The position numbers and the translations under genes were made by a program. Below, one piece after another: positions 14,867 through 45,539 of a stretch of 64,000 bases of DNA. The DNA is taken from positions 32,441-96,440 of the forward strand of contig CAZNUN010000008.1 of assembly GCA_964576275.1 (NCBI GenBank), given 5' to 3'. Under the pieces are notes generated by a model. It was not told the DNA's origin and made no database searches. It saw only the letters and a program-made list of their open reading frames with translations. Positions within the stretch are counted from its first letter, which is position 1. Each line of letters starts with the position of its first letter. The stretch is from an uncultured bacterium. Lineage in GTDB: Bacteria > Fidelibacterota > UBA2242.

Positions 14867-15222
14867 TGACCTCTGAGCGTCGAGATAAAAATATCGCCCG
14901 TTCAATTCTAATTGTCTCAGGCGGGATTGTGATTTATTGGCTTTACGAGGCGATTGTCTGGCTGGTTCACTGGCTAAGCACTGCCGGTTTGAAAGCCGGA
15001 GTGGGAGTGAATTTCGGAGAATTTTGCCTGGACAATCTGGGCATTATTCTAGTCGTTTATGTTATAATCTGTCTGCAAATTGCCGGCGTTGTGGAGTTCC
15101 GCCAGCGCAGAAATTTTACGGAGGCGTTTTTTCTGGGAGTCATTCTGACTCCGATATTAATGCCGGTTTATATGAGATTAAAAGAGAAAGGCTTCTTCAA
15201 GGCCAAAAGGAGGTTTGAATGA
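14863..15222 (+). CDS. Small integral membrane protein (3 TM), operon member
   Basis: 119 aa, hydrophobic. Overlaps both neighbours by 4 nt. Confidence 0.4.
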   Translation: MMTSERRDKNIARSILIVSGGIVIYWLYEAIVWLVHWLSTAGLKAGVGVNFGEFCLDNLGIILVVYVIICLQIAGVVEFRQRRNFTEAFFLGVILTPILMPVYMRLKEKGFFKAKRRFE

Positions 15223-18584: not shown

Positions 18585-18862
18585 AAAATCTATCTGAGTT
18601 TAATTAACAATATGGGAAATATTAAAGTAAATTTTATTAACAATAGAAGGCAATTAGAAATATTGAAGATTTTACATGTACTTCTGATATGCCTTAATTT
18701 TAAACATGAAGTTTTAAAATGATTTATCCGATGTATATTGGAAAGGACTCAATTATAGCGAAACCAAAATCAAAAATATTTAGATATTTAAGAAAACTTC
18801 CCAGACCTATAAATTTTCATGTAATTATTAGCCTCATAAGTTAGTTGCTGTTAATATTTCGA

Positions 18863-19654
18863 TTATATAAGCCAACTATAATATTTTTTACCACGCCAAT
18901 TTTGAATTGTAATAGATATTCCTTCTTTATCCTTTATGTAATTCCCTTTAAAGTCTCTCAAAATATCCTCAATATTTTTAAAGTCATCTTCAGAATTGTA
19001 ATAAAAATATCGGGCAGGCATATCCCAATAATGACCTTGAGGTTCTTTTGGATATGGTATCTCTCCATATTGAGGGAATTCAAATTCATCAATATTTAGT
19101 ACTTGCTTTAAAGTATCCAAAAATATACTTGCCAATGACGAATCTCTAAAAGTACTCCCAAACAGATAAACGAATGAATTTTGAGGATAACGCCAGAATA
19201 AAGATATGATAGGTTTTGTACTATTAGTAGAATCGTCAGATACCGATATTGATGAATCTGTCACATAGATACTATAGTTATCAATAAAATTATCTCCAAT
19301 CAGTTTTAATGAGTAGGTTTTATCAGACAATGGCAAATGAATTCTTGACCCGGCCGGACCCAAAGCAGTCAAACAAACATTTGGTATAATTATCCCCAAA
19401 ATATCTATTTCTATTTTATTATTTGTAATTTCACAATCCGTGTAAATACAATAATTACAACAACCGTATATTTTTTCTGTTTCTAAAAATAAATATATTT
19501 CGGGATCGCTTTCTAAATCTGATTGTTCATAATCTTCAGATACTTTAAATAATATTCTTCCTTCAATAGGTAATAAATCACTGTTATCGTCAAAAAAGCC
19601 ACAGTTGATTAATCCTAAAAAGGTTATAAGGAGAAAGATTGTTCTGTAGTTCAT
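18863..19654 (-). CDS. Hypothetical lipoprotein in an AT-rich islet
   Basis: Signal peptide with 'LINCGFF'. N/I/Y/K-rich composition, unlike the rest of the window. No recognisable family. Confidence 0.4.
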   Translation of the reverse strand: MNYRTIFLLITFLGLINCGFFDDNSDLLPIEGRILFKVSEDYEQSDLESDPEIYLFLETEKIYGCCNYCIYTDCEITNNKIEIDILGIIIPNVCLTALGPAGSRIHLPLSDKTYSLKLIGDNFIDNYSIYVTDSSISVSDDSTNSTKPIISLFWRYPQNSFVYLFGSTFRDSSLASIFLDTLKQVLNIDEFEFPQYGEIPYPKEPQGHYWDMPARYFYYNSEDDFKNIEDILRDFKGNYIKDKEGISITIQNWRGKKYYSWLI

Positions 19655-19699
19655 ATCTCTAATCTCTTGTTATCTAACTTAAATATTATGACGAAATTT

Positions 19700-22162
19700 T
19701 TACCTCGCCAACACCATCTTTTTTACCTGAACATAATCGCCGGCAGTTAATTTGTAGAAGTAAATCCCGCTGGCGACGTTGTTGCCATGCGAGTCTCGGC
19801 CGTTCCAGATCAGGTGATAACGACCGGTTGGCTGGTGATTGTCCGCGAGAGTCGCAATTTTTTGTCCGAGTAGATTGTAAATCTCGAGCCTGACGTGGGA
19901 ATTCTGTGGCAATTCAAACTCAATGGTCGTCAGCGGATTGAAGGGATTGGGAAAATTCTGTCTGACTTGAAAAGTTTTAGGTTTTTGAGAATCATCAGGT
20001 TTCTCGATGATCTGAAATTCGCCATGATAGAGATTATCCGGTGAATTTTCCATAAAAAACGGCTGACTGGCCTTCATGTCCATTATCCCATCATACCATT
20101 GCGGCAGAGTCGGCGGCGTTTCACATGCTAACATCTCACGCCAGGCTTCGTCGGTCAGACGATTGGCGATTGGCTGAATGAATTCATAATATGAGAAGAT
20201 CGCCCCGCGCGTTAGGCGAAGCGTACCGCCTTCATTGATGATGACATTGATTTCCAGAGGATAACCGACGCCTTCCTCCAGACACTGATCCGAATTGGAG
20301 TCGGTATGCACATCGGCGACGACCGCCATGTCATCGCTGTCATAGTGCCAGGGATCCTCACCTTCGGAGACCAATTTTTGCATGACTTTGCCAAAGCAAT
20401 AAATGTTGGAGTATTCCTCATCTGTAAGTGGTGTATTCTCCAGTTCCTTGATCGAAACATCCCGTAAGAAAAGCAGGAGAGATTCAAAAAGCACAAGTTT
20501 ATCTTGAAATTTTTCAGTTAATATGTCCCTTGTAAGCAGTCCGTCCATTGTATAGCGCGTCAGGCTTGCCAGCCGGGCGTAAAGATGCGGATTAGGTTCC
20601 ACGTAACTTTTCGGCGGTCCGGGAGTGATACAGCAGGGCGTCATGCTTTGCTTGGCGTAGAGAATCGTATCGTGCCGTAATTCCGCCCAGGAAGCCAGAG
20701 CTGTCAGGAGTTCTTTGTCCATCCAGGCGATAGTCTGCATGAAAAACGGGTAGCCTTCGCCTTTTTCATATAGTAATGGCATCAGGCAATAGAGCCAGTT
20801 CCAGTATAAATTTTGTGCCCATTCGGCAGGTGAAATAGACGCGAATTCGGTCTTGAATTCGGTAATTTTTTCAGGATAATTCGGACAGGCTGTCTCGTTA
20901 TAAAGCGAATCCAGCAAATCGTAAGCCCGATCCGAGCCGAGAATCGTCATTATATCCAATCCTTTGGGGAAAAGACGCTGACCGACTTCAGGGTCGATAA
21001 GATGCGCGAACATATATGAATCGGGAATGAAACGCTGACCCATCAGCCTGAATCCTTTGTAGGTAGTAAAAGAGCCGTAAATCCAGTTCGGTATTTTCGA
21101 TTCCGGCAATTTTTGAGCTTCCGTCATAAAGGCGTCAAGCAAAGCCGAATTGGCAAGGCTATCGGCGGTAAGCGATAGAAAATTGGTACCGTAAATCTGT
21201 TCGGCGATAGATTTATAATCTGTAATATTGGGATCATCGGTTTTGCCGACGAAAAAGACAGTGGGTTCATAGATCATTTTCCATAAATCCAACAGAGAAG
21301 TCCCATCTGCTTCCAGATTATAGAGCATTTGAGTAAGCAACAGCGCCTGGAGGGTGTGTCTCCTCGCCAAGTCACCGAAATTTTCCGGCTCCATGGTGAA
21401 AATCGTCCAGCCTTGCCACATCATGGCTTTGAAGTAAGCCGTCAGCGTGTCATTCGTGGTGTAATGTCCGCGCGGGATGAATTGACAATAATCCAGTAAA
21501 TTGAATGGACCTAAGATGGGCGGAGTGTTAAATCCGTCATGATTGGCGATTAAAGTCAATTCCGAATCCACAAGCGCCGCAACCGGTTCTGGAACGATAA
21601 AATCATTGCCTTTCAATAATTTCTGCGATACGCACAGAAATGCTAGATTGCGCCGTAACGTCTCTTTAATTTCCGGTTCGGTTGCTGTATCATATTGCGG
21701 TTGGGTGGCGTCAATCAAAGTCTGGATTAAAAGTTCCAGAGCCGGTACGAATTTTTGAATTTCGATTTCGGCCAGAATCTTATCATAAAGAACATGATAA
21801 ATGTGCAGAACCGCGTCGGTAGTTACAAAAAGCGGCGTGCCTTCCCAGGTGCAGTCGTTGTAAATATCATATAACTGCTTGAACTGACTTCTCCGGACCG
21901 TGAAGTGGTTTTGAAGTAATAGCGCTGAGTCCACCGCACTGAATCCATAGAAGTAAGAAAAATTTTCAACGTTACTGAAATCGGGTTCGACGGTAAAAAG
22001 CGGTACGTTGGGAGTAAAATCGGCAGGATATGGCTGGTAAGTTCCAAAGTCGGTTTGAACATCTTCGGAAATGTTGGCAATCATCTGGAACTGAGCCTGC
22101 AACCCGGAAAAACAAAGAGCGAAGCATAGAACGAGTTTGAAAAATTCGTTAAAACGCTTCAT
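19700..22162 (-). CDS. Large secreted protein with a C-terminal T9SS sorting domain (CTD/Por_Secre_tail); last gene of the long minus-strand array
   Basis: The C-terminus 'FPNPFNPLTTIEFELPQNSHVRLEIYNLLGQKIATL...SGIYFYKLTAGDYVQVKKMVLAR' is a canonical T9SS CTD. The track ORF starts at 22201; the start was trimmed to ATG 22162 (MKRFNEF), with 'AAGGAGG' 7 nt upstream. Signal peptide follows. The ~700-aa body has no family I can name. Confidence 0.6.
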   Translation of the reverse strand: MKRFNEFFKLVLCFALCFSGLQAQFQMIANISEDVQTDFGTYQPYPADFTPNVPLFTVEPDFSNVENFSYFYGFSAVDSALLLQNHFTVRRSQFKQLYDIYNDCTWEGTPLFVTTDAVLHIYHVLYDKILAEIEIQKFVPALELLIQTLIDATQPQYDTATEPEIKETLRRNLAFLCVSQKLLKGNDFIVPEPVAALVDSELTLIANHDGFNTPPILGPFNLLDYCQFIPRGHYTTNDTLTAYFKAMMWQGWTIFTMEPENFGDLARRHTLQALLLTQMLYNLEADGTSLLDLWKMIYEPTVFFVGKTDDPNITDYKSIAEQIYGTNFLSLTADSLANSALLDAFMTEAQKLPESKIPNWIYGSFTTYKGFRLMGQRFIPDSYMFAHLIDPEVGQRLFPKGLDIMTILGSDRAYDLLDSLYNETACPNYPEKITEFKTEFASISPAEWAQNLYWNWLYCLMPLLYEKGEGYPFFMQTIAWMDKELLTALASWAELRHDTILYAKQSMTPCCITPGPPKSYVEPNPHLYARLASLTRYTMDGLLTRDILTEKFQDKLVLFESLLLFLRDVSIKELENTPLTDEEYSNIYCFGKVMQKLVSEGEDPWHYDSDDMAVVADVHTDSNSDQCLEEGVGYPLEINVIINEGGTLRLTRGAIFSYYEFIQPIANRLTDEAWREMLACETPPTLPQWYDGIMDMKASQPFFMENSPDNLYHGEFQIIEKPDDSQKPKTFQVRQNFPNPFNPLTTIEFELPQNSHVRLEIYNLLGQKIATLADNHQPTGRYHLIWNGRDSHGNNVASGIYFYKLTAGDYVQVKKMVLAR

Positions 22163-22219
22163 TTTTCGCCTCCTTTTTGTCCAATTAAAATTTATAGGCA
22201 AATTTATTAATAATCAACA

Positions 22220-24007
22220 TTACCAATTCATCTCGAAACCCAGCGTCCAGCCGTTGGTATTCATGATATCACCATTCGATCGGATGAACAATTTGGCGCC
22301 GGACGGATGTTCGTAAATCATGCCGAAGCGAACGGTGTTCGTGCGGGTAAAAGTTTTCGGCGGATTAGAATCGTATTTTTCGTAGCGATTGGTTTCCGGG
22401 TCATCAACGGTTAAAACCCCATTTACCCAATAACGATCGACAATGTTGGGATAGAGCAGATCGCCATGACTGTTATCCTCGACCAGACTGAGACTTATAT
22501 CGGTGCCGAGTAAGGCAAAGAAGCCCTTAGCCAGATGAGCTTTTACGCCGATTGGCACCATGAGATTCCAGGCATTGGTTTCAGTTGAATAGGAATATTG
22601 TTTAGTGTATGTGTCGAGGTATCGGTATGTCCCGGCGCTGTAAAGTGAATATTCCGTGAACGAATTGGAGTAATAATCCGAACTTTCCTCGAAATCGGCC
22701 TGCGACCATTGCCGGGAAATCTGTAATCCTCCGAACAGCGTCCAGTCATTTTCCAGCGCGTAGATCAATGAAGTCAGAAATTTCCACTGGCTGATCGTCT
22801 CGTCACCGGAACCTTCCAGGTTGAATTCAGCGGCGCTGTTTTCGGTGCAACGCCGGAATTCGTAGGTATTAGTGGCAATCCAGTAGTCATAAGTCCGGTC
22901 GCTGAAAGTGGTATCGTCAGTAGCGTATCGGGTGGTGATATCCTGATTTTTACTCGAAAAAGAAAAGAAGGAGCGCAAAATGAGATTTGAATTCATTTTT
23001 TTCTCGAATGTCAGCGTCAGGTATGGCTTCACTCCGGAAGTTTTATACATGTAATTGCTGTTCATAGTGTGTTCGCTGATGTTGTAGTAAGCCGTATTGG
23101 TCGCCGTTTCCGAGAACGAATCCGAAGTGTCCTGTGAAATTTCGGATTCCTTGCCGGAACCGAAAAACACTCCGGCGAAGAAACCGTAAGTCGTTTTATC
23201 GTCGGGATGGTTTAGAATCCCGGCGCCCAGGTCAAAATGCCGGCCGTTGATTTTCATATCTTCGTCGTTCAGAATTCCATAAGACGAATGTGGATAGGTC
23301 GCCCATTGCGAATTGTACAGATAGCCGTCGCGGTGAAAAATATAATGGCCGATGTGGAAACCGAGGTCGGTTTTTTCAGACAACCGGTAGCCGAGAGTGA
23401 ATTCGGATTGATTGGCGAGGACGATCTGTTGGTTTTCCTCCGTTTCGAGACGTTGCGGTTCAAGTTCAGCATAAGAGGCGTAGGAATTGGTAGCGATTGC
23501 ATCTTCCATCCAGCCACCGCTTCTCCACCAGGTTGAATTCCGGTAAGGACCATAGTCGAAGACTGAACGGTTGACAATCCCCAGACCCATGCGTTTATTC
23601 AATGGCAGAATCAGAGCCAGATTGTAAAGCGGCGCGATATTGATGTCCTGAACGCTGGTCTGACTGTACCACGATGGCGAAAGATAATAACTGTCTGTCA
23701 GAATCCCGGACGACAGCGGATTGAGCGAGGACGTGACACTGCTTTCCAGATTGAAGTCAATGTAAACAGTCTTCTGTTTTTCGCGCAGTATATAGGCCGG
23801 ATTCCAGTTCAGATCGCTGAACTTGTCCGGAACCATGCCACTGACTTCCGGCGCGAAAATCGCCATCTGCATAGTGCGGAATCCGATCGGTTCCATCAGA
23901 TAAGGAACTGAAGGTTGGCGCGTGACCGGATCGGGAACTGTTGCCAAAGCAATTCCGGTTAGCAGAATCAGAATAATCATCAAATCATATATTTTTTCAT
24001 TTTTCAT
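22220..24007 (-). CDS. Hypothetical outer-membrane beta-barrel-like protein
   Basis: Start trimmed to ATG 24007 (MKNEKIYDL), with 'AAAGGAG' 6 nt upstream. Signal/anchor peptide. Long run of alternating strands. C-terminus 'GWTLGFEMNW'. Confidence 0.4.
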   Translation of the reverse strand: MKNEKIYDLMIILILLTGIALATVPDPVTRQPSVPYLMEPIGFRTMQMAIFAPEVSGMVPDKFSDLNWNPAYILREKQKTVYIDFNLESSVTSSLNPLSSGILTDSYYLSPSWYSQTSVQDINIAPLYNLALILPLNKRMGLGIVNRSVFDYGPYRNSTWWRSGGWMEDAIATNSYASYAELEPQRLETEENQQIVLANQSEFTLGYRLSEKTDLGFHIGHYIFHRDGYLYNSQWATYPHSSYGILNDEDMKINGRHFDLGAGILNHPDDKTTYGFFAGVFFGSGKESEISQDTSDSFSETATNTAYYNISEHTMNSNYMYKTSGVKPYLTLTFEKKMNSNLILRSFFSFSSKNQDITTRYATDDTTFSDRTYDYWIATNTYEFRRCTENSAAEFNLEGSGDETISQWKFLTSLIYALENDWTLFGGLQISRQWSQADFEESSDYYSNSFTEYSLYSAGTYRYLDTYTKQYSYSTETNAWNLMVPIGVKAHLAKGFFALLGTDISLSLVEDNSHGDLLYPNIVDRYWVNGVLTVDDPETNRYEKYDSNPPKTFTRTNTVRFGMIYEHPSGAKLFIRSNGDIMNTNGWTLGFEMNW

Positions 24008-24017
24008 ATTTGCTCCT

Positions 24018-25274
24018 TTATGCAACTGGATTCATGATTTTTCCGATGAACAGGATCGTGCCGGAAGCCCGCTCGCGGATCGCCAAAATAAAGGGACGAT
24101 CAACGCGCATTACCGTAATATCTTCCGTGTCAGCCGAGACCGATTTGTATGTAACCTCGACGGATGCCGCCGCGGCGGCTTCGGTGCCTTCTTCGTCAAC
24201 TTCAATAAACGATTTATGTCTGACTTCGCTGATATACAATTCATCGCCATCTTGATTGATACGGCTGAAATCAGCCTGATCGTTAAATGCGATTCCCATA
24301 CCGAGTTCTGTCAGCGGATCATTTAGCACCCGGAACCACTCGAGTTTGAATCTCGGCAAATAAAGACTGACGTTTGTCGTGGATAAGTCTGCGCTCAGAT
24401 TATTCCATTTTTCATCGGTCAAGCCGCTTATCAACGAGTCTAAATCGTCGCTGGATCCCGGCAGGAGTACCGTCATGGCAAAAAATCCATCGTTATACGG
24501 CAGGTCGATTATCTGAAGTTCGTCAGTCTCAGCATAGTCGAAGTCACTACGGAGCGACATCATCTGGCAGTTCACTGTTTCGTCATTATTAAGATAAAAC
24601 GGAGCCTCCTTTGTGTGTTCTTCATTGAACTGATAGGTCCAGGTGCCCTTGAAATAAATGGCGTTGAGCAGAAACATAACCGTGTTGGGATTGATCGGTT
24701 TCCCAATGAGTTGTTTAATGAGTCCTTCGGTTTGTTCTGATATCCAGGCATTCATTGTATCAACGGCGGCGTCCTGATTGAAATCAAGTCCCCGAACAAC
24801 TGCATCGAAATACGTCTGGTTCGTTGCGATAAATGCCGGCAAGACCGAGAATTCGTTCCGGTACCAAATCGAGTTTGCGATCCGGAATTTGACTTGCGCA
24901 TCAAGCGACCTCAGTAAATTGATCAGGCTTTGATATGATTGGTTGATTTCATCTTCGATAAGATTTTCGAAACGAAGCGTTGAATGTATTGCCTCAAGAG
25001 TAGTGCCCGCCGCGCCGTTCGCGGTCATTCCTAAAGCCATCGAAACCGAAACTGGTGATATAAACAGATTGCTATCGCCGACCTCTTCCGATAATACTTT
25101 GAACAGATCGAATCCGAATGAGTTACTCGATTCGATCAGAGACTGTTCGGATTTGCTAAGGTTTCTTGGTAATTGTGGAATACCATCGGAGATCGGCCCC
25201 GTGACGTCCGAACAGCTTGTTATCAATGTCATTAATATGAATGACAGGTATATATTTCGTGAGGATTTTTCCAT
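24018..25274 (-). CDS. Serpin (serine-protease inhibitor) lipoprotein, paralog 1
   Basis: Hinge and shutter motifs: 'FIEVDEEGTEAAAAASVEV...MRVDRPFILAIRERASGTILFIGKIMNPVA'. Lipobox 'LITSC'. The track start is a TTG; the start was trimmed to ATG 25274 (MEKSS), with 'AAGGAG' 6 nt upstream. Confidence 0.8.
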   Translation of the reverse strand: MEKSSRNIYLSFILMTLITSCSDVTGPISDGIPQLPRNLSKSEQSLIESSNSFGFDLFKVLSEEVGDSNLFISPVSVSMALGMTANGAAGTTLEAIHSTLRFENLIEDEINQSYQSLINLLRSLDAQVKFRIANSIWYRNEFSVLPAFIATNQTYFDAVVRGLDFNQDAAVDTMNAWISEQTEGLIKQLIGKPINPNTVMFLLNAIYFKGTWTYQFNEEHTKEAPFYLNNDETVNCQMMSLRSDFDYAETDELQIIDLPYNDGFFAMTVLLPGSSDDLDSLISGLTDEKWNNLSADLSTTNVSLYLPRFKLEWFRVLNDPLTELGMGIAFNDQADFSRINQDGDELYISEVRHKSFIEVDEEGTEAAAAASVEVTYKSVSADTEDITVMRVDRPFILAIRERASGTILFIGKIMNPVA

Positions 25275-25287
25275 CTTTTTCTCCTTT

Positions 25288-26529
25288 TTACTCAGCAACT
25301 GGATTCATGATTTTTCCGATGAACAGGATCGTGCCGGTATTTTTCTCACGTAGAAAAAAGATAAACGGCCGATCGACAATAAAGTAAACTTCCTCTGTAC
25401 CAATGGATGTTATTTCAAAAGATATAGACGTTACGGCGGCGGCCTCAGTACCTTCTTCATTGACATCCACGAAAGTCTTATGTTTTATGTTACTGATAAA
25501 TAGATCGTAATCCGGATTGATTTTATCGAAATTCGCTTCGGATGGTGAAAAGGCTTTTTGCATACCCAGCGCTTTTAATGTTGGGATCAAACCGATATTA
25601 TATTCGACTTTAAATTTCGGTAAGAAAATATTGACTTCGGTTTCGGTCAGACCGTTTATCCAATCCATCCAATTGCCAGCAGTCATTGCTGCCGCAACAG
25701 AATCGACATCCACTCCGGAGTTTGGTAGAATGACAGTCATACTGAAGCCGATTTCACAGTAAGTCAGGTCGGCGATCTGGATCTGGTCATTCGCAAAATA
25801 ACCATGAGTGGCTTTATGCCTCATCATTTCACAATTTGTCTGACTGCCGTCTTTCCGGTAGAATGACGTTTCCTGGGTGTTTTCATCATCGAACTCATAC
25901 GTCCAGGTGCCTTTGAAGTAAATGGCATTGATCAGGAACATGACAGTATAAGGATCAATCGGCGGATCGACGATCGTTGGGATTTTCTCATGAGTTTTTT
26001 CGTTTACCCAGGCATTGATTACGTCAGCCGCGTCACTGCGATTGAAGTCCAACTCCTGAACCTCAGCGTCGAAATAAGTGGTATTGATTACTAAGAAATC
26101 ATTCAATACCGAAAATCCGCTGCGATACCAGATAGAGTTGGCGATCTCGAAAGTGACATCCGGGTCGGCGGTCGCAAGCAGATCAATCAGACTCTGATAG
26201 GACTGATTGATTTCCTCGGCAGTCAGATCGCCATATTCCAGCATGGAGTGCATTTCACTGCGGGTCTCGCCGTCCGCGCCGTTATAAGCCATACCGAGTG
26301 CCATCGAAACACTCAGTGGCGAAATGAAGATATTTTTATCGGTCTCGGAGGAAACGATTTGCCGGAATAACTTCAGACCGAAATTATTATCGGCTTCCGT
26401 CACCTTCTTTTCTATGGCGCTCAGCTCGCGGATCGGCTCTGGTTTATCACCGCCGGTGATTTTCTCAGGACAGCGGCTCAAAAAAAGAAGTGGAAGCACT
26501 GTCAGAACAATAATTTTTCTGTTTGTCAT
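25288..26529 (-). CDS. Serpin (serine-protease inhibitor), paralog 2
   Basis: 'FVDVNEEGTEAAAVTSISFEI...FIVDRPFIFFLREKNTGTILFIGKIMNPVAE'. Same C-terminus as paralog 1. Start trimmed to ATG 26529 (MTNRKIIVLTVLPLLFLSRC), with 'GAGG' 5 nt upstream. Confidence 0.8.
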   Translation of the reverse strand: MTNRKIIVLTVLPLLFLSRCPEKITGGDKPEPIRELSAIEKKVTEADNNFGLKLFRQIVSSETDKNIFISPLSVSMALGMAYNGADGETRSEMHSMLEYGDLTAEEINQSYQSLIDLLATADPDVTFEIANSIWYRSGFSVLNDFLVINTTYFDAEVQELDFNRSDAADVINAWVNEKTHEKIPTIVDPPIDPYTVMFLINAIYFKGTWTYEFDDENTQETSFYRKDGSQTNCEMMRHKATHGYFANDQIQIADLTYCEIGFSMTVILPNSGVDVDSVAAAMTAGNWMDWINGLTETEVNIFLPKFKVEYNIGLIPTLKALGMQKAFSPSEANFDKINPDYDLFISNIKHKTFVDVNEEGTEAAAVTSISFEITSIGTEEVYFIVDRPFIFFLREKNTGTILFIGKIMNPVAE

Positions 26530-26681
26530 AGAAACCTCATCATTTATTTCCGCAATACTTAAAAACGACAATTCATCTATGACAAATAGCATTCCAAAAT
26601 CTTCCGACGGAGAAAACCTGTCCGGGATAGACAAACTCTCAGATTTCTGAGACTAACGCCGAAAAATTGAGAGAAGCTGAA

Positions 26682-27734
26682 TCAGTCGCCGCGATAGATC
26701 AGACCGAGACTGCCAAACCATTTATCGTAATATAATCCACAGTAATGGGTCTCGTTGCGCATGAAAGCCGCGCGGCCGGTGAGAGCCAGGTTTTTCCAGA
26801 ACGGCCATTCCCATCCGAAAAGCAATTGGTTTTGGACATTTTGCTCCGGGTCGGGATTGTAATAGAGGAAGTACTGACGTAAATCCGCCCGGTATTTTTT
26901 CAGGAAAACATCGGCGACGATCTGATAATAACACGGCCCGATCTTTCCGGAAAGGTAATAATTCAAACTGGCGCCGAGATATTCGGAGAATTGATTGTTG
27001 GAAGTGACTTCAACGAGTCTCAGACGCAGACCGTGAAGCGCCCGGCGCCGCCGTTCAAAACCGATCTGACCGAAGACATAGCTATCCCGCTGGAGGCCCA
27101 ATGTATCCAGTACGGAATTGTCTTCAGCCAGGACATTTCTGAAGGGATAATCAATTCCGATCCAGCCGCCTTGTGCTGAGAATACCAGACCCGGATTGAT
27201 CTGACGCCGGAGTTCGGCTGATCCGCCAAGATGACGATTGGTGAGGCATTTTTTATGGTGATATGAATTTTCGGCGGTTAGGATGCTGAAGATGGTTGTC
27301 CAGTGTTGAAAATTCCAGCCAGCGCCGATCCTGCCGTCGCTGTTATTGTAGAAAAAATCATCATACAGCCACCACTTTTGAAAAGTACTGACCGCCGACG
27401 TAATGAAGAGCGACCGGCTGAGATTATAATTAGCCTGGGCGATCAGGTTTAATGTGGCTTTATTTTCCGCGTGACGATCGTAAGCCAGAAAACCGCCGGT
27501 TGAGTTAATAGATACATTCAGACGTTGTTTGTTCAGCCGGTAGCTCAGGTTCGCTATAACCGGCATTACCACACTGTTTCTGGAAATGGAATCGGACTCA
27601 AAGATGTTCGTTTCCATACCGCCTTCAATCTTGAAATAGCCAGACAGGTTTTGTCCTCCCTGAATGCCGGCGGCGAGGTTCAGAAAAATCCCGAAATGAA
27701 TAATTAGGCGTTGGCGACCACTGATTGATAACAT
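26682..27734 (-). CDS. Hypothetical outer-membrane beta-barrel-like protein
   Basis: 350 aa. N-terminal hydrophobic segment, Y/W/F-rich alternating strands. No recognisable family. Confidence 0.35.
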   Translation of the reverse strand: MLSISGRQRLIIHFGIFLNLAAGIQGGQNLSGYFKIEGGMETNIFESDSISRNSVVMPVIANLSYRLNKQRLNVSINSTGGFLAYDRHAENKATLNLIAQANYNLSRSLFITSAVSTFQKWWLYDDFFYNNSDGRIGAGWNFQHWTTIFSILTAENSYHHKKCLTNRHLGGSAELRRQINPGLVFSAQGGWIGIDYPFRNVLAEDNSVLDTLGLQRDSYVFGQIGFERRRRALHGLRLRLVEVTSNNQFSEYLGASLNYYLSGKIGPCYYQIVADVFLKKYRADLRQYFLYYNPDPEQNVQNQLLFGWEWPFWKNLALTGRAAFMRNETHYCGLYYDKWFGSLGLIYRGD

Positions 27735-27745
27735 TCAGCGGAAAT

Positions 27746-28723
27746 TTACTTAATTCCGTTGATTTCCTGTAGTTGTTTCTGGTAATAGTTGCGGAGCGAG
27801 TCCATTTGGGCTATATACGATGGCAGGTTGTTGGTTGGAATTTTTTGAAAAAGCGACAGGTAATCCGCCGTCGTTGATATTTGAGTAGTGATGGGAAGAG
27901 CGGCATTATCCGTCTGGGATAAGGCGTCTTTTCCTCCGTTGTTATATGTGGGTTCTGTCCAGGTTGTCCCGTCGGTCTGATCGCGATCGTTATTTTGCAG
28001 AGCGATTTCCCGGTTAACTGCTTCTCCGCTGAAGCCGGTCATTTCCAGATTCAGCTGGTTCAGCCTCTGACGCAGGTCTCTTTCGGCAATGGCGGCGGTG
28101 ATAATCATATCTATCTGCCGGATTTTATCGTCGAGAATTCGGATGACATCGGTGCGGATCGCGGCGCTGTGTTTGTATTTGGTTAACAGGGCGATGACGT
28201 TTTCGTATTTATTGGATAAAACCGGTTCGTTCGGCGTTGGCGGTCGGCTGGCGATAATTTGTCCTCGTTGCTCGATTAACTCAATCAGTTCGCGGGTGAG
28301 ATTTTGTCGTTGGCGCGGATCGGCGGTGTGATCGTACCGCTGCAGGATGGATTCGATGCGTGTTGAAATGAGGGTGTAATATTTATTGAAAATTAGATCT
28401 ACGGAAGTTTTTTGGGTAACTAATTTTGTTCTGATGTCAGTCATTTTGGAGCTGACTTCGGCTTTGCGGGCGGTTAGACGGGAGATTTTTCTGTTTGTAT
28501 TCCAGTTGGCGTTTTCCGCCGAGCCGAGTCGTAAAATTTGGGCATCGAGCGCGGCGATATCTTTTTCGAGTTGACTGTAAGACAAAGTCAATTCATGATA
28601 TTTACTCAGGGTTTGAGCGTACTGGACTCGGTAATAAGCAAGGCTGTCAGTAGAGGTCGCATTCAGCTTAATCGTCAGCAGAAAGATGAGCGCAATGGTC
28701 ACAAGGCATAGATGTTTATTCAT
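27746..28723 (-). CDS. Secreted coiled-coil protein, encoded immediately downstream of the two-component system
   Basis: Signal peptide 'LVTIALIFLLTIKLNA'. Long heptad-like Q/L/R/E-rich helices. No recognisable enzymatic motif. Confidence 0.4.
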   Translation of the reverse strand: MNKHLCLVTIALIFLLTIKLNATSTDSLAYYRVQYAQTLSKYHELTLSYSQLEKDIAALDAQILRLGSAENANWNTNRKISRLTARKAEVSSKMTDIRTKLVTQKTSVDLIFNKYYTLISTRIESILQRYDHTADPRQRQNLTRELIELIEQRGQIIASRPPTPNEPVLSNKYENVIALLTKYKHSAAIRTDVIRILDDKIRQIDMIITAAIAERDLRQRLNQLNLEMTGFSGEAVNREIALQNNDRDQTDGTTWTEPTYNNGGKDALSQTDNAALPITTQISTTADYLSLFQKIPTNNLPSYIAQMDSLRNYYQKQLQEINGIK

Positions 28724-30092
28724 ATTCTTCCGGTTTAATGCTATACTTTTCGATTTTATAATAGAGAGTACCGGGCTTGATTTTCAGCTGTTCGGCGGCG
28801 CGCTGTTTAACGCCATGCTGGTCGTGCATAGCCTTAACGATCATTTCGCGTTCAATCCGCCCGATGTGAGTGGAAAAATCGCGATCCGGCGTTTTTTCTG
28901 CGCCTGAGGGAGTGGATGATTTTTCTGGTAAATCACTAAAGTCGAACAGTGTTTCCGAGAAAATATCCTCTTCTACGAAAACCAGCGCCCGCTCGATGAA
29001 ATTTTCCAGTTCGCGCACGTTGCCCGGCCAGGAGTAGGCGGTAAGGCGGTCAATGACGCCGGATTCGATTTGCGGCGTCTTACGTCCCTGTCGGGTGGCT
29101 TTAAGTTTCAGCAAATTATCAATAAGGAGTGGAATATCTGACCGACGTTCCCGCAAGGGTGGAATTGACAACGGAATGACATTTATACGATAGTACAAAT
29201 CGGAACGAAACTGGCCGTCCTTGATCTGTTGTTCCAGGTTTTTATTGGTAGCGCAGATCAGACGGAAATTGCTATGGATGAATTTTTCTCCGCCGACCCG
29301 CTGGAATTGTTTGGTCTGCAGAACGCGCAGAAGTTTAACCTGTAAACCGGCGGACATATCGCCGATCTCATCAAGAAACAGCGTGCCGCCGTGACTCTGT
29401 TCGAATTTTCCGGCGTGCGTTTTATGTGCACCGGTGAAAGCGCCTTTTTCATGCCCGAAGAGTTCGCTTTCCAGGATTGTTTCGGTCAGCGCACCGCAAT
29501 TGACTGCCAGAAACGGACCTTTATGCTGTTGACTTGCCTGATGAATCAGGCGAGCTACCAGTTCTTTACCGACACCGCTTTCACCAGTAATCAGCACCGG
29601 GCTGTCGCTCGGAGCGATTTTAGCGATTATCTGGCGGATTTGCCGGATGGCGGGCGAGTCGCCGATCAATACGGGAAGATCGGATTCTTGGTTAAGGGGT
29701 TTCTGTTGGTTCAGCCAACGGTGGTAGAGAATCTCAACTTTGCGGCGCAGTTCGGCCAGCGCGAAGGGCTTAGTGATAAAATCTTCGGCGCCGCATTTCA
29801 TGGCGTTCACCGCCAGGTCAACCGTGGCAAAGGCGGTTATCAGAACTATTGTGGTGGCAGGCTGCACCTCTTTGATTTTTTTCATAAGAGCCAGCCCGTC
29901 CATTCCCGGCATTTTTATATCGGTGATGATTAATTCAAAGGATTTATTCTGGATCGTTTCCCAGGCTTGTTGACCGTCACTGACCGTTGAGACTGCGTAA
30001 CCTTCTTTGACGAGCGAATCCCGCAGACCTTCACGCATGGATTGGTTGTCTTCGACGATTAGGATGCGATAGTTAACTGGCAGTGGATTCAT
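28716..30092 (-). CDS. Sigma54-dependent response regulator (NtrC/AtoC family: REC + AAA+ + Fis-type HTH)
   Basis: 'ILIVEDNQSMREG...ELIITDIKMPGMDGL' (REC), 'GESGVGKELVARLIH' (Walker A), 'ESELFGHEKGAFTGA' (GAFTGA sigma54-contact loop) and a C-terminal HTH. Confidence 0.85.
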   Translation of the reverse strand: MNPLPVNYRILIVEDNQSMREGLRDSLVKEGYAVSTVSDGQQAWETIQNKSFELIITDIKMPGMDGLALMKKIKEVQPATTIVLITAFATVDLAVNAMKCGAEDFITKPFALAELRRKVEILYHRWLNQQKPLNQESDLPVLIGDSPAIRQIRQIIAKIAPSDSPVLITGESGVGKELVARLIHQASQQHKGPFLAVNCGALTETILESELFGHEKGAFTGAHKTHAGKFEQSHGGTLFLDEIGDMSAGLQVKLLRVLQTKQFQRVGGEKFIHSNFRLICATNKNLEQQIKDGQFRSDLYYRINVIPLSIPPLRERRSDIPLLIDNLLKLKATRQGRKTPQIESGVIDRLTAYSWPGNVRELENFIERALVFVEEDIFSETLFDFSDLPEKSSTPSGAEKTPDRDFSTHIGRIEREMIVKAMHDQHGVKQRAAEQLKIKPGTLYYKIEKYSIKPEEYE

Positions 30093-31519
30093 ATTTTCTC
30101 CGGGAGAATTAGGACAAATTCCGTGCCGCTTTGATCCGAGTGATCTAAATAGAGACGCCCGCCATGTTGTTCGACGAGAGATTTAGCGATCGATAATCCC
30201 AGACCGACGCCGTCCGCTTTGGTGCTGAAAAAAGCCTCAAAAATTTGAGACCGGATTTCCGGGGAAATCGGCGATCCACTGTTGCGGAAGTGGATAGCGA
30301 TATGATCTGTATGATTGACGATCTCGACCTTGACCTGCGGTGTCAGTCGGTTGGCTTCGAGGCCGTTGCGGATCAGATTAGCCAGACAGGAACGGAGTTT
30401 TCCAGGGTTGGCTTTGACCTGCGCCCGGCCGCTGATATTGATTGCGGCTTCCGGGAAATCGCGTTTTAATTCAAGGCTGACTTCATTTAAAAGATCGCTT
30501 AGTTCGCAAGTGATCAGATTGGCTTCCATAGGCCGGGCATAGGATAGGAAAGATTCGACGATCAGCGCCAGTCGGTCAACTTCGCGGGCAATTGCCGCCG
30601 CATATTTGGCGGCGGGGGTTGCTTCGCCGGTTTCTTCGAGCAATAGTTCGGAATTGATTTTCATGCCGCCCAGTGGATTACGGATTTCATGGGCGACCGA
30701 TGCTAAAAATTGTTTGTTTTGTTTCTCGCGCTGACTCAGCTCGGCGTGCATTTTCTGCATTGTCTGGCCCAGAAAGCCGATTTCGTCCCGGCGGGGATTA
30801 GGAACTGAAAGATCGCTGCGTCCCTGACCGATAGCCATAGCGTAGTCAGTCAGGTTTTCGAGCGGCCGGGTCAGCGTGCGCGCCAGAACCATAACCATCC
30901 CGATGCTGATGATCAAAACGACCGCCGTAAGGCTGAAAATCTGACGGCGTAATTTGGCGGTAATTCCTAAAAATTCGGCGCTGGCATCCAGTCCGAGGAT
31001 TACCGTTTGTTCGGGATTCCGCAGTACCTCAGAAAAAACCGATTTATAGAATTGTCCGTTCCGATCAACAAAGAGCGGCGAGGTTATGATTTGGCCAGCG
31101 GCGGCGGATGAGATTTCATGAGTATGCAGTCGGGATGATAGTATGGCGCTTTCGGAATTTCCGGCAACTGCCAGCAAGCCTTTATGAGGAGCAATCAAAT
31201 ACAAGGCCTGGGCGTCGAAAATTTCAGCCTGACCATTTAACCAACGCTGTAAAGAATCGCGGACGGAGTTTAGCGCCGGATATGAAGCTAACAGATTGAC
31301 GAGATTCGGATCGGCGTGAGAACAGATCAACTGGATATTTTGTTCCAATTGTCTGGTTAATTGGTTTTCAAGCGCCTGGCGGGTTTGCCAGTAAACAGGA
31401 TAAGTGATCGCCAGGGTGACGAAAATTACCAGCAATCCGGTAAAGATCGCAAACTTCCAGGCCAGTCTGACCGGTGGTTGATTTGGTTTGGCGGATTCGC
31501 CTAAGGGATAATTATTCAT
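30089..31519 (-). CDS. Sensor histidine kinase (2 TM with a periplasmic sensor, HisKA + HATPase_c)
   Basis: 'LASVAHEIRNPLGGM' H-box. The C-terminal part 'GVGLGLSIAKSLVEQHGGRLYL' has G-box-like motifs. ATGA overlap with the regulator. Confidence 0.8.
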   Translation of the reverse strand: MNNYPLGESAKPNQPPVRLAWKFAIFTGLLVIFVTLAITYPVYWQTRQALENQLTRQLEQNIQLICSHADPNLVNLLASYPALNSVRDSLQRWLNGQAEIFDAQALYLIAPHKGLLAVAGNSESAILSSRLHTHEISSAAAGQIITSPLFVDRNGQFYKSVFSEVLRNPEQTVILGLDASAEFLGITAKLRRQIFSLTAVVLIISIGMVMVLARTLTRPLENLTDYAMAIGQGRSDLSVPNPRRDEIGFLGQTMQKMHAELSQREKQNKQFLASVAHEIRNPLGGMKINSELLLEETGEATPAAKYAAAIAREVDRLALIVESFLSYARPMEANLITCELSDLLNEVSLELKRDFPEAAINISGRAQVKANPGKLRSCLANLIRNGLEANRLTPQVKVEIVNHTDHIAIHFRNSGSPISPEIRSQIFEAFFSTKADGVGLGLSIAKSLVEQHGGRLYLDHSDQSGTEFVLILPEKI

Positions 31520-31533
31520 CGGATTTTTAGTAG

Positions 31534-33189
31534 TTAAATATTAGGATTGTCTCCACACACCTGCCTGAAAATACGCAGAAAATTACCTCCCATGATCTTG
31601 GCGATTTCTTCCTCAGTATAGCCTTCATTCAGCAAAGCGCCGGTCAATCTCGGAAAATAGGATACATCCTGTAGATCACCCGGCCAGACTTCGATCCCGT
31701 CAAAATCCGAACCGATGCCGACATAATCAACGCCAACCAGGTTAACGATATAATTGATATGGTTGATGACGTCATTCAGAGAGGCATTGCTTGAACCGTT
31801 TAAAAAGTAAGGGTAGAAGCAGGCGCCGATCAATCCTCCTCCGGCGGCAATTGCCCGTATCTGATCGTCGCTCAAATTGCGGTAATGGTTACAGAGCGCC
31901 CGGGCATTTGAATGGGACGCTATGATCGGATTTTTGGAGGTTGCCAGGATATCGGAAATGGTCTGGATGCCGACATGTGAGACGTCAATTATCATGCCGA
32001 GTGAGTCCATCGCGGCTATTACTTTCCGTCCGAAGGCATTCAAGCCACCGGCGCGGGTTCCGCGGGCTTCATCTTTGGCGGAAACAGCCCAGGACGTGCT
32101 GTTATTCCAGGTGATGGTCATGCCGCGCACGCCCAGATCGTAGAAATATTTTAATTTATCGACATCGTTTTCAATATAATGACCACCTTCCAGGAAGATT
32201 ATTCCGGCGATTCGATCATCATTTACCGCACTGTCCAGGGCGGTATAATTTCTGATATGTTGAATTGTTTCTGGATTGGCAGTAAACTCGGCGGTAAGGC
32301 GGTTATATTGATTGATGGCCGTCTGATAAGCGCCGTTTGAAGCGCTGTCCCAGATGGCGAAAACCTGGATGTCCAATCCGCCATCCTGGAGGCGGGGAAT
32401 ATCGGTATGTAAATATGAATGACGGTCTGCAAGGTGATAATTGGCATAGGCAGATTTAGCCATTTGCTCGGAAATATCGTTGTGCATGTCGGCAACGCGG
32501 ACATAGGAATGCACAGATTGCAGAAAGGTTGTAAAATAGGTATGCTCGGAAGTCGTAATCAGCGTATCGGAATGGTAGCCGAATTTCGAGCTGACGATCC
32601 GCAGATCGGAGACGTTCGGTTTGGATAAGAACCGGGCTTGGTCGTCGGTTGGGCTGATATCGCCTAACCCGCCGGTTAGACTGCCGTCCAGTTGGATCAT
32701 TTTACGCGTGATTTGTTTTTGACCGGTTCGAATAGTATAAAAGTAAACTCCAGCGCTTCCTTGGCTTTTCCAGGTTGTCGAATAAGAACCTGCGGGGAGA
32801 TATTTGTGACAGCGATCGATTGTCTGACCCAGCAGATTGGTGACCGTGATCTCAATCGCGCCGTCACTTGGTAAATAAAAGGGCAGATTTGTCACCGGAT
32901 TAAATGGATTGGGGTAATTCTGCAGAACGCGGAATTCATCCGGCAAGTTAAACTCGTCACTTTTCATCTTGTTTGGAAAGGACAGGCTCCAGTCGCCATT
33001 GCCGTCGGTAAAGGTTGAATCGCAGGAGCCCGATTCGGTATCGCAGATCGTGATCCGAACGTTGCGAATGGGAGCATCGGTGTGGAAATCGGAAACCCGG
33101 CCGCCATAGGTTGCCGACCAGGCGGATAAAGCCGGGATGGCAATCAAGGCGCCCTGTAAAATTCGTCGGATTATATTTTGACCGGTCAT
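31534..33189 (-). CDS. Membrane dipeptidase (peptidase M19, renal-dipeptidase family) with an internal, N-terminally placed T9SS-CTD-like/FlgD-Ig domain
   Basis: M19: 'VADMHNDISEQ', 'GLDIQVFAIW', 'GIIFLEGGHYIEN', 'VSHVGIQTI', 'ASHSNARALCNHYRNLSDDQIR' and 'GIGSDFDGI'. Upstream of it (aa ~85-170): 'LQNYPNPFNPVTNLPFYLPSDGAIEITVTNLLGQTI...GVYFYTIRTGQKQITRKMIQL', which is CTD-like but not C-terminal. Signal peptide. Confidence 0.7.
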   Translation of the reverse strand: MTGQNIIRRILQGALIAIPALSAWSATYGGRVSDFHTDAPIRNVRITICDTESGSCDSTFTDGNGDWSLSFPNKMKSDEFNLPDEFRVLQNYPNPFNPVTNLPFYLPSDGAIEITVTNLLGQTIDRCHKYLPAGSYSTTWKSQGSAGVYFYTIRTGQKQITRKMIQLDGSLTGGLGDISPTDDQARFLSKPNVSDLRIVSSKFGYHSDTLITTSEHTYFTTFLQSVHSYVRVADMHNDISEQMAKSAYANYHLADRHSYLHTDIPRLQDGGLDIQVFAIWDSASNGAYQTAINQYNRLTAEFTANPETIQHIRNYTALDSAVNDDRIAGIIFLEGGHYIENDVDKLKYFYDLGVRGMTITWNNSTSWAVSAKDEARGTRAGGLNAFGRKVIAAMDSLGMIIDVSHVGIQTISDILATSKNPIIASHSNARALCNHYRNLSDDQIRAIAAGGGLIGACFYPYFLNGSSNASLNDVINHINYIVNLVGVDYVGIGSDFDGIEVWPGDLQDVSYFPRLTGALLNEGYTEEEIAKIMGGNFLRIFRQVCGDNPNI

Positions 33190-33232
33190 CAGTCAGCCCT
33201 TTGATCTGGTTAATTAACGATTGTCATACTAA

Positions 33233-33255
33233 CGCTAAATTTAGAACATTTAGCG
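33233..33255. promoter_or_regulatory. Inverted repeat in the divergent promoter region between the M19/two-component array and the LKR gene
   Basis: 'cgctaaat-ttagaac-atttagcg' is an 8-bp perfect IR. Coordinates +/-2. Confidence 0.25.
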
Positions 33256-33373
33256 GATTGCCAAATTGGAATTATCAGAAATTGTAATTGTATTTTGAAA
33301 GCACTCAGCAAGAATTACTTCCCTTTCTCCGATGAAAAACTTAAATTTATTAAGTTAACAACGGAGATTTGTG

Positions 33374-34687
33374 ATGATTTTCGGAATCCGGCAAGAAGAT
33401 AAAAATGAATGGGAAGCGCGCACACCTTTAACCCCGGCGCATGTCAAAACACTGATGGACAATTATTTCGTAAAATTCATCGTTCAGCCATCACCAATCC
33501 GGGCTTTCCGGGATGAAGATTACCGGGCGGCGGGGGCGGAAATCAATCCCGATCTCAGCACTTGCGACGTTATCCTGGCGGTCAAAGAAATTCCAGTGGA
33601 ATTATTGCTCCCGAATAAAAAATACCTGTTTTTCTCTCACACGATCAAAGGTCAGCGCTACAATATGCCGATGCTGAAACGACTGGTGGATTTGCGGACT
33701 ACGCTGATCGATTATGAAAGGATTGTCGACGAGAAGGGCAAGCGCCTGGTGTTTTTCGGAAGATTTGCCGGAATCGCCGGGATGCTGGATACGCTTTGGG
33801 CGCTCGGCCAGCGTCTGGAACTGGAAGGTTTTACGACTCAATTCTCCGAAGTGAAACGCGCTTTGCATTATGCCGATCTGGAAAGTGCTAAAAAAGCCCT
33901 GACCATCGTTGGTAAGAAAATCAGAGCCCGAGGGATTCCCGGTGCTGCGACGCCTCTGGTTTTCGGCTTTGCCGGGTATGGCAATGTTTCCCGCGGAGCG
34001 CAGGAAATTTTCGATTTGCTGCCTTTCGAGGAGGTCAAACCGCAAAATCTGACAGAAATTTCTCGGCAGGATAACTTTTCAGCCAATCGTTTATACAAGG
34101 TCGTCTTTACCGAAGCCGATATGTTTCGCCCCAAGAATCCAACGGATCGTTTTGATCTTCAGGATTATTTTTCGCATCCTGAAAAGTACGAATCGCGATT
34201 TGAAGAATATATTCCATATCTGAGCGTTCTAGTAAATGCGATTTACTGGGACGCACGCTGTCCGAAATTAGTGACGCGAAAATATCTGCGAAAAGCTTAC
34301 AAAACCGGGCAGCCGCGATTTCTGAAGGTCATCGGTGACATTACCTGCGATATAAATGGTTCGATCGAATGCAATCTGGCGGCTACGACACCCGGCGATC
34401 CGGTTTATGTCTATGATCCTTTAACTGAGAAAATCACTTCCGGCGTCGCTGGACGCGGTCCGGTCGTATTAGCTGTCGATAATTTACCCTGTGAATTGCC
34501 GCGCGACTCCTCGGCGATGTTCGGCGATGTCCTGATTAATTTTATCGCGCAGCTGAGTAAAGCCGATTTTTCAAAGCCGTTTGAAACCGTAAATCTGCCG
34601 CCGGAACTGAAGCGCGCAACACTGTTGTACGCCGGAGAATTCACCCCTGATTTTATCTATATGTCCAAATATATCGAGAATCTTTGA
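33374..34687 (+). CDS. Lysine-ketoglutarate reductase (saccharopine dehydrogenase, L-lysine-forming; AlaDH/PNT fold), matching the LKR half of animal AASS
   Basis: 'GIRQEDKNEWEARTPLTPAHVK' matches AASS '[22 protein letters not shown]'. 'YLFFSHTIKGQRYNMPMLKRLVDLRTTLIDYERIVDEKGKRLVFFGRFAGIAGM' matches '[54 protein letters not shown]'. The track start 33371 is a GTG; the start was trimmed to the adjacent ATG, with 'GGAG' upstream. Confidence 0.8.
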   Translation: MIFGIRQEDKNEWEARTPLTPAHVKTLMDNYFVKFIVQPSPIRAFRDEDYRAAGAEINPDLSTCDVILAVKEIPVELLLPNKKYLFFSHTIKGQRYNMPMLKRLVDLRTTLIDYERIVDEKGKRLVFFGRFAGIAGMLDTLWALGQRLELEGFTTQFSEVKRALHYADLESAKKALTIVGKKIRARGIPGAATPLVFGFAGYGNVSRGAQEIFDLLPFEEVKPQNLTEISRQDNFSANRLYKVVFTEADMFRPKNPTDRFDLQDYFSHPEKYESRFEEYIPYLSVLVNAIYWDARCPKLVTRKYLRKAYKTGQPRFLKVIGDITCDINGSIECNLAATTPGDPVYVYDPLTEKITSGVAGRGPVVLAVDNLPCELPRDSSAMFGDVLINFIAQLSKADFSKPFETVNLPPELKRATLLYAGEFTPDFIYMSKYIENL

Positions 34688-45043: not shown

Positions 45044-45046
45044 AGC

Positions 45047-45511: not shown

Positions 45512-45539
45512 TTTAAAATCTCCCTTATTTATAAAGTAA

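Follow-up and report, generated by a model that had tools for sequence, protein, structure and literature searches.

Serpins target serine and cysteine proteases. How bacteria regulate and use them is poorly understood, and the only regulatory precedent that we found comes from Bifidobacterium. In Bifidobacterium breve, a two-component system encoded next to a serpin operon controls serpin expression, and proteases act as inducers (PMC8012564). Another serpin, miropin of Tannerella forsythia, is anchored as a lipoprotein in the outer membrane and exposed at the cell surface; it blocks serine and cysteine proteases of foreign origin and presumably shields surface proteins (bioRxiv 10.1101/2025.09.05.674453). 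Here we analyze a locus in which two serpin genes share an array with genes for a sensor kinase, a sigma-54 activator, two predicted outer-membrane barrels and a cargo protein of the type IX secretion system (T9SS). It occupies positions 19700-33189 of a stretch of 64,000 nucleotides (nt), called the window, from an uncultured bacterium of the Fidelibacterota (lineage UBA2242; assembly GCA_964576275.1, contig CAZNUN010000008.1, positions 32,441 to 96,440). From upstream to downstream the genes are as follows, with protein lengths in amino acids (aa).

31534-33189, minus strand: M19 dipeptidase, 551 aa (Peptidase_M19 in Pfam and NCBIfam)
30089-31519, minus strand: sensor histidine kinase, 476 aa (HAMP, HisKA, HATPase_c)
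28716-30092, minus strand: NtrC-type sigma-54 response regulator, 458 aa (REC, Sigma54_activat, AAA_lid_14, HTH_8)
27746-28723, minus strand: secreted coiled-coil-like protein, 325 aa (signal peptide, no family)
26682-27734, minus strand: barrel of 350 aa, called B350, the fourth gene of the regulatory module (unannotated family)
25288-26529, minus strand: serpin 2, 413 aa (serpin family PF00079)
24018-25274, minus strand: serpin 1, 418 aa (serpin family PF00079)
22220-24007, minus strand: barrel of 595 aa, called B595 (no known family)
19700-22162, minus strand: DUF3160 protein, 820 aa, the last output gene (DUF3160 and a T9SS type A sorting domain)

The kinase, the regulator, the coiled-coil protein and B350 make up a regulatory quartet which, with cis elements in the gap that follows it and with the output genes, forms a conserved ensemble in Fidelibacterota and related bacteria of the Fibrobacterota-Chlorobiota-Bacteroidota (FCB) group. 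We lean, by a small measure, toward reading it as an envelope-sensing, sigma-54-dependent anti-protease surface program. As in B. breve, the serpins would be under a two-component system encoded beside them. B. breve is, however, a monoderm actinobacterium, for which no sigma-54 activator, coiled-coil/barrel pair, B595, DUF3160 or T9SS has been reported in this context. Among solved structures, that of miropin is the closest to serpin 1. The two proteins share a putative lipoprotein-type signal, an inhibitory hinge, an aligned Lys and an origin in the FCB group. In contrast, neither sigma-54 two-component control nor pairing with a dedicated barrel or a T9SS cargo was found for miropin in our literature search, and the window holds two paralogues in a predicted regulated operon.

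The regulatory half of the locus recalls two enterobacterial systems that respond to envelope stress, ZraPSR and CpxAR/CpxP. In each, a secreted helical protein is coupled as an accessory to a membrane kinase and its regulator and modulates the former; ZraR is itself a sigma-54 activator. To our knowledge these systems have no outer-membrane barrel partner and control regulons that differ from that of the cassette, and the 325-aa accessory protein is unrelated in sequence to theirs. The Slam (SlipAM/DUF560) systems also place a barrel gene beside lipoprotein genes, and barrel-assisted surface display is conceivable for B595 or B350. A Slam-like role for B350 was nevertheless rejected: a single one of 13 B350 sequences gave a weak SlipAM match (PF04575, E value 0.01), distant members gave none, and the B350 model has 16 strands and no tetratricopeptide repeat domain. 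B595 did not match SlipAM either.

The first-pass annotation, made from the letters of the sequence, had been unable to map this combination of genes to a described system. We concur, having found no match in the searchable literature; no paper retrieved by our search linked serpins to sigma-54, or Marinimicrobia to serpins. Two-component-regulated serpin defense in bacteria is known. What the locus adds is a sigma-54 circuit with its cis elements, an atypical -12 motif, several orphan families and a link to T9SS cargo. The cassette thus presents a defined and widely conserved serpin circuit, with sensor, activator, candidate binding site and promoter, in an abundant and largely uncultured phylum, and it places the coiled-coil protein, B350, B595 and DUF3160 in one testable functional context.

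Organization of the array

The nine open reading frames (ORFs) described in the first pass are all present, head to tail on the minus strand, and their domain assignments hold. Start codons were judged by Shine-Dalgarno sequences and signal peptides and compared with the public gene calls of the contig, which have the same starts in four of five genes; in the fifth, B595, the public call begins nine codons later, which gives 586 aa. We adopted starts at 26529, 25274, 24007 and 22162 for the last four genes. The kinase and regulator genes overlap by 4 nt (ATGA) and the regulator and coiled-coil genes by 8 nt, both couplings being real. Intergenic distances are 14 nt between the M19 and kinase genes, 11 nt between the coiled-coil gene and B350, 152 nt between B350 and serpin 2, 13 nt between the two serpins, 10 nt between serpin 1 and B595, and 57 nt between B595 and DUF3160.

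Gaps of at most 48 nt throughout, as claimed initially, are obtained only with the mechanical TTG starts; the ATG codons supported by Shine-Dalgarno sequences yield the gaps of 152 and 57 nt. Couplings are tight inside each part of the array, and the 152-nt gap, which carries conserved promoter-like elements, lies between the parts. Since this gap appears to be a regulatory region, we predict at least two transcription units. The array had been taken for either one unit or two nested ones, and it is the two-unit option that stands, the regulatory gap in its middle arguing against a single uniform unit. The end of the output unit is likely marked by a weak terminator-like hairpin, found by pattern matching, at the DUF3160 stop codon.

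19689-19710, minus strand: weak terminator-like hairpin (pattern match only)

A search of positions 18000-34000 of the window against Rfam returned no match.

A candidate sigma-54 promoter upstream of the serpin genes

The gap between B350 and serpin 2 contains two elements.

26637-26652, strand not applicable: perfect 16-bp palindrome TCTCAGAAATCTGAGA, a candidate upstream activator site of the response regulator
26580-26597, minus strand: sigma-54-type -24/-12 element TTGGAATGCTATTTGTCA, with GG at 26595-26594 and GT at 26583-26582

The -24/-12 element lies approximately 50 nt downstream of the palindrome in the window, and 50 to 250 nt downstream across loci. It predicts a transcription start near 26570, with a leader of approximately 40 nt before the ATG codon of serpin 2. 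Because this start lies downstream of the mechanical TTG codon at 26634, we take 26529 to be the true start of serpin 2.

Alignment by eye of the gaps that follow B350 in related loci revealed a common element, TGG[C/A]A[C/T]-N5-[T/C]TTGT, preceded by one or two copies of a palindrome of pattern YCTCARA-NN-TYTGAGR, also in distant loci. The -24 half is of the sigma-54 type, with TGGAAT in the window and TGGCAC or TGGAAC in relatives. The distance between the two halves is identical at all sites and is the exact spacing of sigma-54 promoters; moreover, an activator gene is present in the same cluster and an inverted repeat is found upstream. The true motif was recognized only by comparing orthologous gaps, as a strict scan for GG-N10-GC detected no site scoring at least 10/11 in the whole window and none in its gaps. 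The first-pass annotation had suggested searching for sigma-54 promoters upstream of 28723, 27734 and 26529 with a position-specific scoring matrix. A promoter-type element was indeed found at 26529, albeit one that a strict matrix would miss on account of its GT at -12.

We then derived a matrix from ten sites, none of them taken from the window or its close relative. With this matrix, the element of the window scores 18.5, the best value in the 64 kb on both strands. Of 12 held-out loci, eight have a site with a score of 13 or more in the 600 nt past the B350 stop codon; among 1893 windows drawn at random from these loci, the share is 0.74%. The palindrome is found upstream of the element in all eight. 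The held-out set includes five distant loci (L057, L058, L059, L061 and L063) whose flanks cannot be aligned to the window. Altogether, the palindrome and the -24/-12 element follow B350 in the window and in 18 of the 21 other B350 loci. The palindrome pattern has two matches in the window, both within the cluster, when 0.10 would be expected.

We read the gap motifs as a putative activator binding site and a predicted sigma-54 promoter with a lineage-specific variant of the -12 motif. Standard scans miss such a variant, with GT at -12, which bears on the prediction of regulons in the FCB group.

The second palindrome match is located in the kinase gene, where it is accompanied by a weaker element.

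30235-30250, strand not applicable: second palindrome copy CCTCAAAAATTTGAGA, in the 3' part of the kinase gene, encoding SQIFEA
30112-30129, minus strand: weak sigma-54-like element GCGGCACGGAATTTGTCC, encoding GTEFV at the kinase C terminus (score of 11.3)

The element lies 20 nt before the regulator start and approximately 115 nt from the palindrome copy. Similar internal pairs are present in close kinase orthologues and in none of the distant loci, and they overlap the conserved peptides SQIFE and GTEFV. The pair is a candidate only for an autoregulatory promoter, confounded by the fact that the palindrome copy also encodes the kinase peptide SQIFEA.

Conservation of the neighborhood

Co-occurrence of these genes in related genomes, which the first reading had left to be checked, was observed in many species of Fidelibacterota, and conservation of the neighborhood extends to relatives further away. 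The regulatory quartet is present in 22 non-redundant loci, down to approximately 16-20% identity between B350 proteins. An exhaustive profile search for B350 returned 269 representative clusters, all of about 350 aa.

For B595, species-representative genomes were scanned, ORFs were called and their products were clustered, which yielded 44 loci in species-level genomes nearly all labeled Neomarinimicrobiota or Fidelibacterota. Loci in which B595 is 38-45% identical to that of the window all start with genes for a kinase, a sigma-54 regulator and two further proteins, one of about 330 aa and the other a barrel of about 350 aa. After a gap comes a variable set of genes, the last of which encode B595 and a large protein bearing a T9SS sorting domain. 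Even at this level of identity, the order quartet, serpin, B595 and T9SS cargo is seen. A serpin is encoded in 26 of 45 non-redundant B595 loci and directly adjoins B595 in 17 of the 41 with enough upstream sequence. Among the 31 loci with enough downstream sequence, the gene after B595 encodes a T9SS sorting domain in 14 and a DUF3160 protein in 8.

Distant B350 loci were chosen without reference to serpin or B595. They are organized as follows.

L059: kinase, regulator, 329-aa protein, B350, gap, distant B595 homologue of 578 aa (hhalign 97%), serpin
L061: quartet, three unknown genes, DUF3160, serpin
L062: kinase, regulator, serpin, 344-aa protein, B350
L063: quartet, gap, T9SS-type proteins including a VIT-vWA protein, serpin, DUF3160
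L057: quartet, gap, vWA protein, contig end
L055: pair of a 338-aa protein and B350 alone, in an unrelated context

That the linkage of serpin and DUF3160 to the quartet survives such rearrangements is strong evidence for a functional link. The quartet is an older and wider unit than the output genes. The M19 dipeptidase, listed as a member of the array in the first pass, was not found upstream of the kinase in any other related locus, even where B595 is 76% identical. We therefore rejected its membership, its synteny not being conserved; it is a lineage-specific neighbor.

Related loci also encode families that are not found in the window. In many such loci, the output operon starts with the gene for a protein of some 367 aa, whose signal peptide and CxxC...CxxC zinc ribbon precede a barrel-like C-terminal part (L019, L020, L022, L035 at 7607-8722, L036, L040, L053 and L054). 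A lipoprotein of about 160 aa is often encoded just before it. Two small lipoprotein families and Cys-rich T9SS cargo families recur as well. The domain make-up of the VIT-vWA protein of L063 (16104-18464), which shares an operon with a serpin, and of the vWA/YfbK_C protein of L057 (6703-8238) recalls the heavy chains of eukaryotic inter-alpha-trypsin inhibitors.

The regulatory quartet

In the kinase, two transmembrane segments flank a periplasmic domain of about 145 aa and are followed by the HAMP, HisKA and HATPase_c domains; orthologues occupy the same position in related loci. The regulator has all the attributes of NtrC-family enhancer-binding proteins, namely a REC domain, a sigma-54 AAA+ domain whose GAFTGA motif is seen in the translation, and a C-terminal Fis-type helix-turn-helix domain (HTH_8). 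Its best NCBIfam models are AtoC, NtrC and, in third place, ZraR. Its scores are far below the equivalog cutoffs (450 vs 714 for AtoC, 382 vs 760 for ZraR), and as no such cutoff is reached, it is not AtoC, NtrC or ZraR proper.

The 325-aa protein has a constant place between the regulator and B350, and its orthologues were aligned. It matches no Pfam or NCBIfam family, and its matches in the Protein Data Bank are coiled coils only, of the kind that coiled-coil noise produces. These matches, the lack of a known family and two Pro-free, heptad-like stretches at aa 27-135 and 168-257 are the reasons for the coiled-coil label.

The claim that the array encodes two outer-membrane barrels is supported by AlphaFold2 models of B350 and B595, both of which are beta-barrels. 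That of B350 has 16 strands, with a mean predicted local distance difference test (pLDDT) score of 87. B350 has no Pfam family, even when every member of its family is scanned. Neither barrel has the signature of a TonB plug or of a transporter family, and their fold matches are generic. The initial notion of barrels dedicated to the serpins found no support; B350 sits with the regulatory module and B595 with the output unit.

Serpins and other products of the output unit

Both serpins of the window are full-length members of PF00079 (385 and 394 bits vs a cutoff of 27; Pfam E value of about 1e-115). The hinge of inhibitory serpins, with Glu at P17, Gly at P15, Thr at P14 and small residues at P12 to P9, is present in both, as EEGTEAAAAA and EEGTEAAAVT, and EEGTEAAA is found in nearly all orthologues. 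Serpin 2 has a signal peptide ending in Cys, the hinge EEGTEAAAV and a predicted P1 Thr. Serpin 1 combines its inhibitory hinge with a lipobox-type signal, LITSC. Signal peptides ending in Cys occur in almost all orthologues; the residue before the Cys is often Asn or Arg, which is not canonical. The closest solved structure to serpin 1 is that of T. forsythia miropin (5ncs, E value of 5e-79), and a Lys of serpin 1 is aligned with a Lys of the miropin reactive-center loop, reported to be the P1 residue.

The two serpins share 47% identity, and both types recur in L012 and L053, arguing that they are old paralogues and not the result of a recent duplication. The last 43 nt of the two genes are 100% identical (24022-24064 and 25295-25337). 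They encode ...ILFIGKIMNPVA and lie just before the ribosome-binding site of the next gene, a pattern that points to local gene conversion or to some constraint acting on the junction.

In its model (pLDDT of 85), B595 forms a large barrel whose longest strands have about 35 residues; ahead of the barrel is a conserved N-terminal region of about 190 residues. It matches no Pfam family even with every member scanned, and it has no Plug/TonB_dep_Rec or Toluene_X signature that would make it a TonB-dependent or FadL-type transporter. B595 is a new family, nearly confined to Fidelibacterota, with 24 clusters in an indexed protein search. The closest B595 genomes (76-78% identity) are metagenome-assembled genomes labeled Candidatus Neomarinimicrobiota or Marinimicrobia, which NCBI taxonomy places in Fidelibacterota, FCB group.

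The 820-aa protein contains a DUF3160 domain (E value of 1e-187). It had been called a T9SS cargo, and this is borne out by a type A sorting domain at its C terminus, at aa 750-830 of an 833-aa ORF (TIGR04183, 38.5 bits vs 23; PF18962, 30.8 bits vs 27). An identical protein is encoded on metagenome contigs, one of 90.7 kb from a digester community (JGI sample 3300020813) among them. In alignments of 15-17 family members, the motifs H120xxH123, RGHYT (231-235), ELRHD (494-498) and DVHTD (617-621) are invariant; no Ser or Cys nucleophile stands out, with five invariant serines left unassessed. Outside the sorting domain, the protein has no sequence or profile match to solved structures, and it matches no peptidase family. 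The only mention of DUF3160 that we found in the literature calls it, in passing, a secreted enzyme (PMC4158269). From its conserved residues it looks like a metal-dependent enzyme rather than a Ser or Cys protease.

Proposed mechanism and alternatives

In the mechanism that we propose, the kinase would detect a cue in the periplasm or at the surface. As accessory envelope components, the coiled-coil protein and B350 would probably assist it, in the manner of CpxP and ZraP, periplasmic accessories of other envelope stress systems. The kinase would phosphorylate the sigma-54 activator, which in turn would bind the palindrome and open the sigma-54 promoter. The cell would then make together the putative lipoprotein serpins, on or in the envelope, B595 and the secreted DUF3160 protein. 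B595 might serve the serpins as an outer-membrane partner, anchor or conduit, a role proposed because it is the most frequent direct neighbor of the serpin. Most likely, such a program would let cells that live in protein-degrading communities shield their surface inducibly against serine or cysteine proteases. Proteolytic damage itself may be the signal, and protease attack is the most economical guess. A more specific version, which we hold to be rather doubtful, is a self-contained alarm for foreign proteases: the coiled-coil protein and B350 would form a relay from the outer to the inner membrane, or a protease-labile bait, that reports proteolytic attack on the surface to the kinase, and sigma-54 would bring about the display of serpins through B595. 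Additional functions in surface protection or repair would fall to DUF3160 and the vWA/VIT proteins. If true, protease sensing of this sort would be a new kind of envelope surveillance.

The architecture of the cassette is well supported; what induces it, and what the two barrels, the coiled-coil protein and DUF3160 do, we infer. Several points weigh against the proposed program. The -12 dinucleotide of sigma-54 promoters is near-invariantly GC, and the elements of these loci have TTGT throughout, or rarely TTGA, at this position. The palindrome and the -24/-12 element are missing in three B350 loci (L055, L060 and L062). The linkage is recurrent and not universal: some B595 genes stand alone, and in L009, L016 and L057 the quartet precedes genes for vWA proteins or paralogous barrels, with no serpin nearby. 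No T9SS machinery genes turned up among the genes examined, no search aimed at them having been made. Operon structure and promoter use are predicted from sequence conservation, and the roles assigned to the coiled-coil protein, B350, B595 and DUF3160 derive solely from location, predicted fold and co-occurrence.

The departure of the -12 motif from GC keeps alive a different account of the gap, in which its motifs would be the site of another regulator, or a terminator or attenuator, and the downstream genes would be expressed from a sigma-70 promoter or by read-through. A pattern scan did flag the palindrome as terminator-like, and our interpretation of the motifs is itself based on sequence. 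However, TGG[C/A]A[C/T]-N5-[T/C]TTGT holds the exact sigma-54 spacing across loci whose flanks cannot be aligned and always occurs beside a gene for a sigma-54 activator. The palindrome was rejected as a terminator, as it has an AT-rich stem, a 2-nt loop and no T-run, and it lies 50-250 nt from the -24 element, as an enhancer site would. We thus consider this account improbable. The sigma-54-dependent program must also be set against a protein-foraging locus, in which the T9SS cargo proteins would be hydrolases, the barrels would import their products, the M19 enzyme would finish off dipeptides, the serpins would guard against the cell's own proteases and the two-component system would sense peptides or amino acids. 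An M19 gene with secretion-type domains lies immediately upstream in the window, a Peptidase_S15 gene follows the serpin in L059, and DUF3160, named as a secreted enzyme (PMC4158269), has enzyme-like invariant His and Asp motifs. Yet M19 is not conserved with the cassette, no recognizable protease is present among the conserved members, and neither B595 nor B350 shows a TonB plug or transporter signature. The single constant output is a protease inhibitor. We regard foraging as unlikely.

A narrower alternative, raised by the first-pass annotation, would make DUF3160 a secreted protease that is controlled by dedicated regulators, the serpins encoded beside it. The genes for serpin and DUF3160 do adjoin each other in several arrangements (L006, L027, L061 and L063), and in the window they belong to the same predicted output operon. 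However, the invariant residues of DUF3160 form His, Asp and Glu motifs, with no standout Ser or Cys nucleophile (five invariant serines being left unassessed), and no peptidase or solved relative was matched. In addition, DUF3160 is missing from many serpin-B595 loci, being the next gene in 8 of 31 only. Since DUF3160 looks metal-dependent and serpins act on Ser and Cys proteases, such a pairing is highly improbable. As for a fortuitous adjacency of unrelated genes, the M19 gene and the 263-aa gene downstream of the array are indeed lineage-specific neighbors. Gene content and cis elements are nevertheless conserved down to 16-20% B350 identity, which makes the probability of chance adjacency negligible.

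Flanking genes

Besides a signal peptide and a CarboxypepD_reg-like domain, the M19 protein contains an internal domain resembling those of T9SS sorting. The latter, at aa 92-165 (32695-32916), scores 40.7 bits against TIGR04183 (cutoff of 23) and is located in the N-terminal third of the protein and not at its C terminus. Judging by this order of domains, the protein looks like a small T9SS cargo, composed of signal peptide, CarboxypepD_reg and sorting domain, fused in frame to an M19 enzyme.

Directly after the cassette, in a region of 29-35% GC, is a minus-strand ORF for a lipoprotein-like protein of 263 aa (18863-19654), found only in contigs of the same species. It is followed on the same strand by a gene for a monofunctional transglycosylase (Transgly; 17712-18584), a gene that adjoins the cassette in L011, L012 and L039 as well. 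On the plus strand, positions 12584-17299 encode an MMPL transporter followed by DUF2921-, DUF1329- and DUF1302-family proteins, whose genes are joined by 4-nt overlaps. This cluster is of a lipid or envelope export type and is syntenic with the cassette in L039 too. Finally, an IS200-like Y1 transposase gene (41011-41700, minus strand) lies beside minus-strand genes for TonB-dependent-receptor-like (CarboxypepD_reg and Plug) and DUF4249 proteins (41796-48642), which are unrelated to the cassette.

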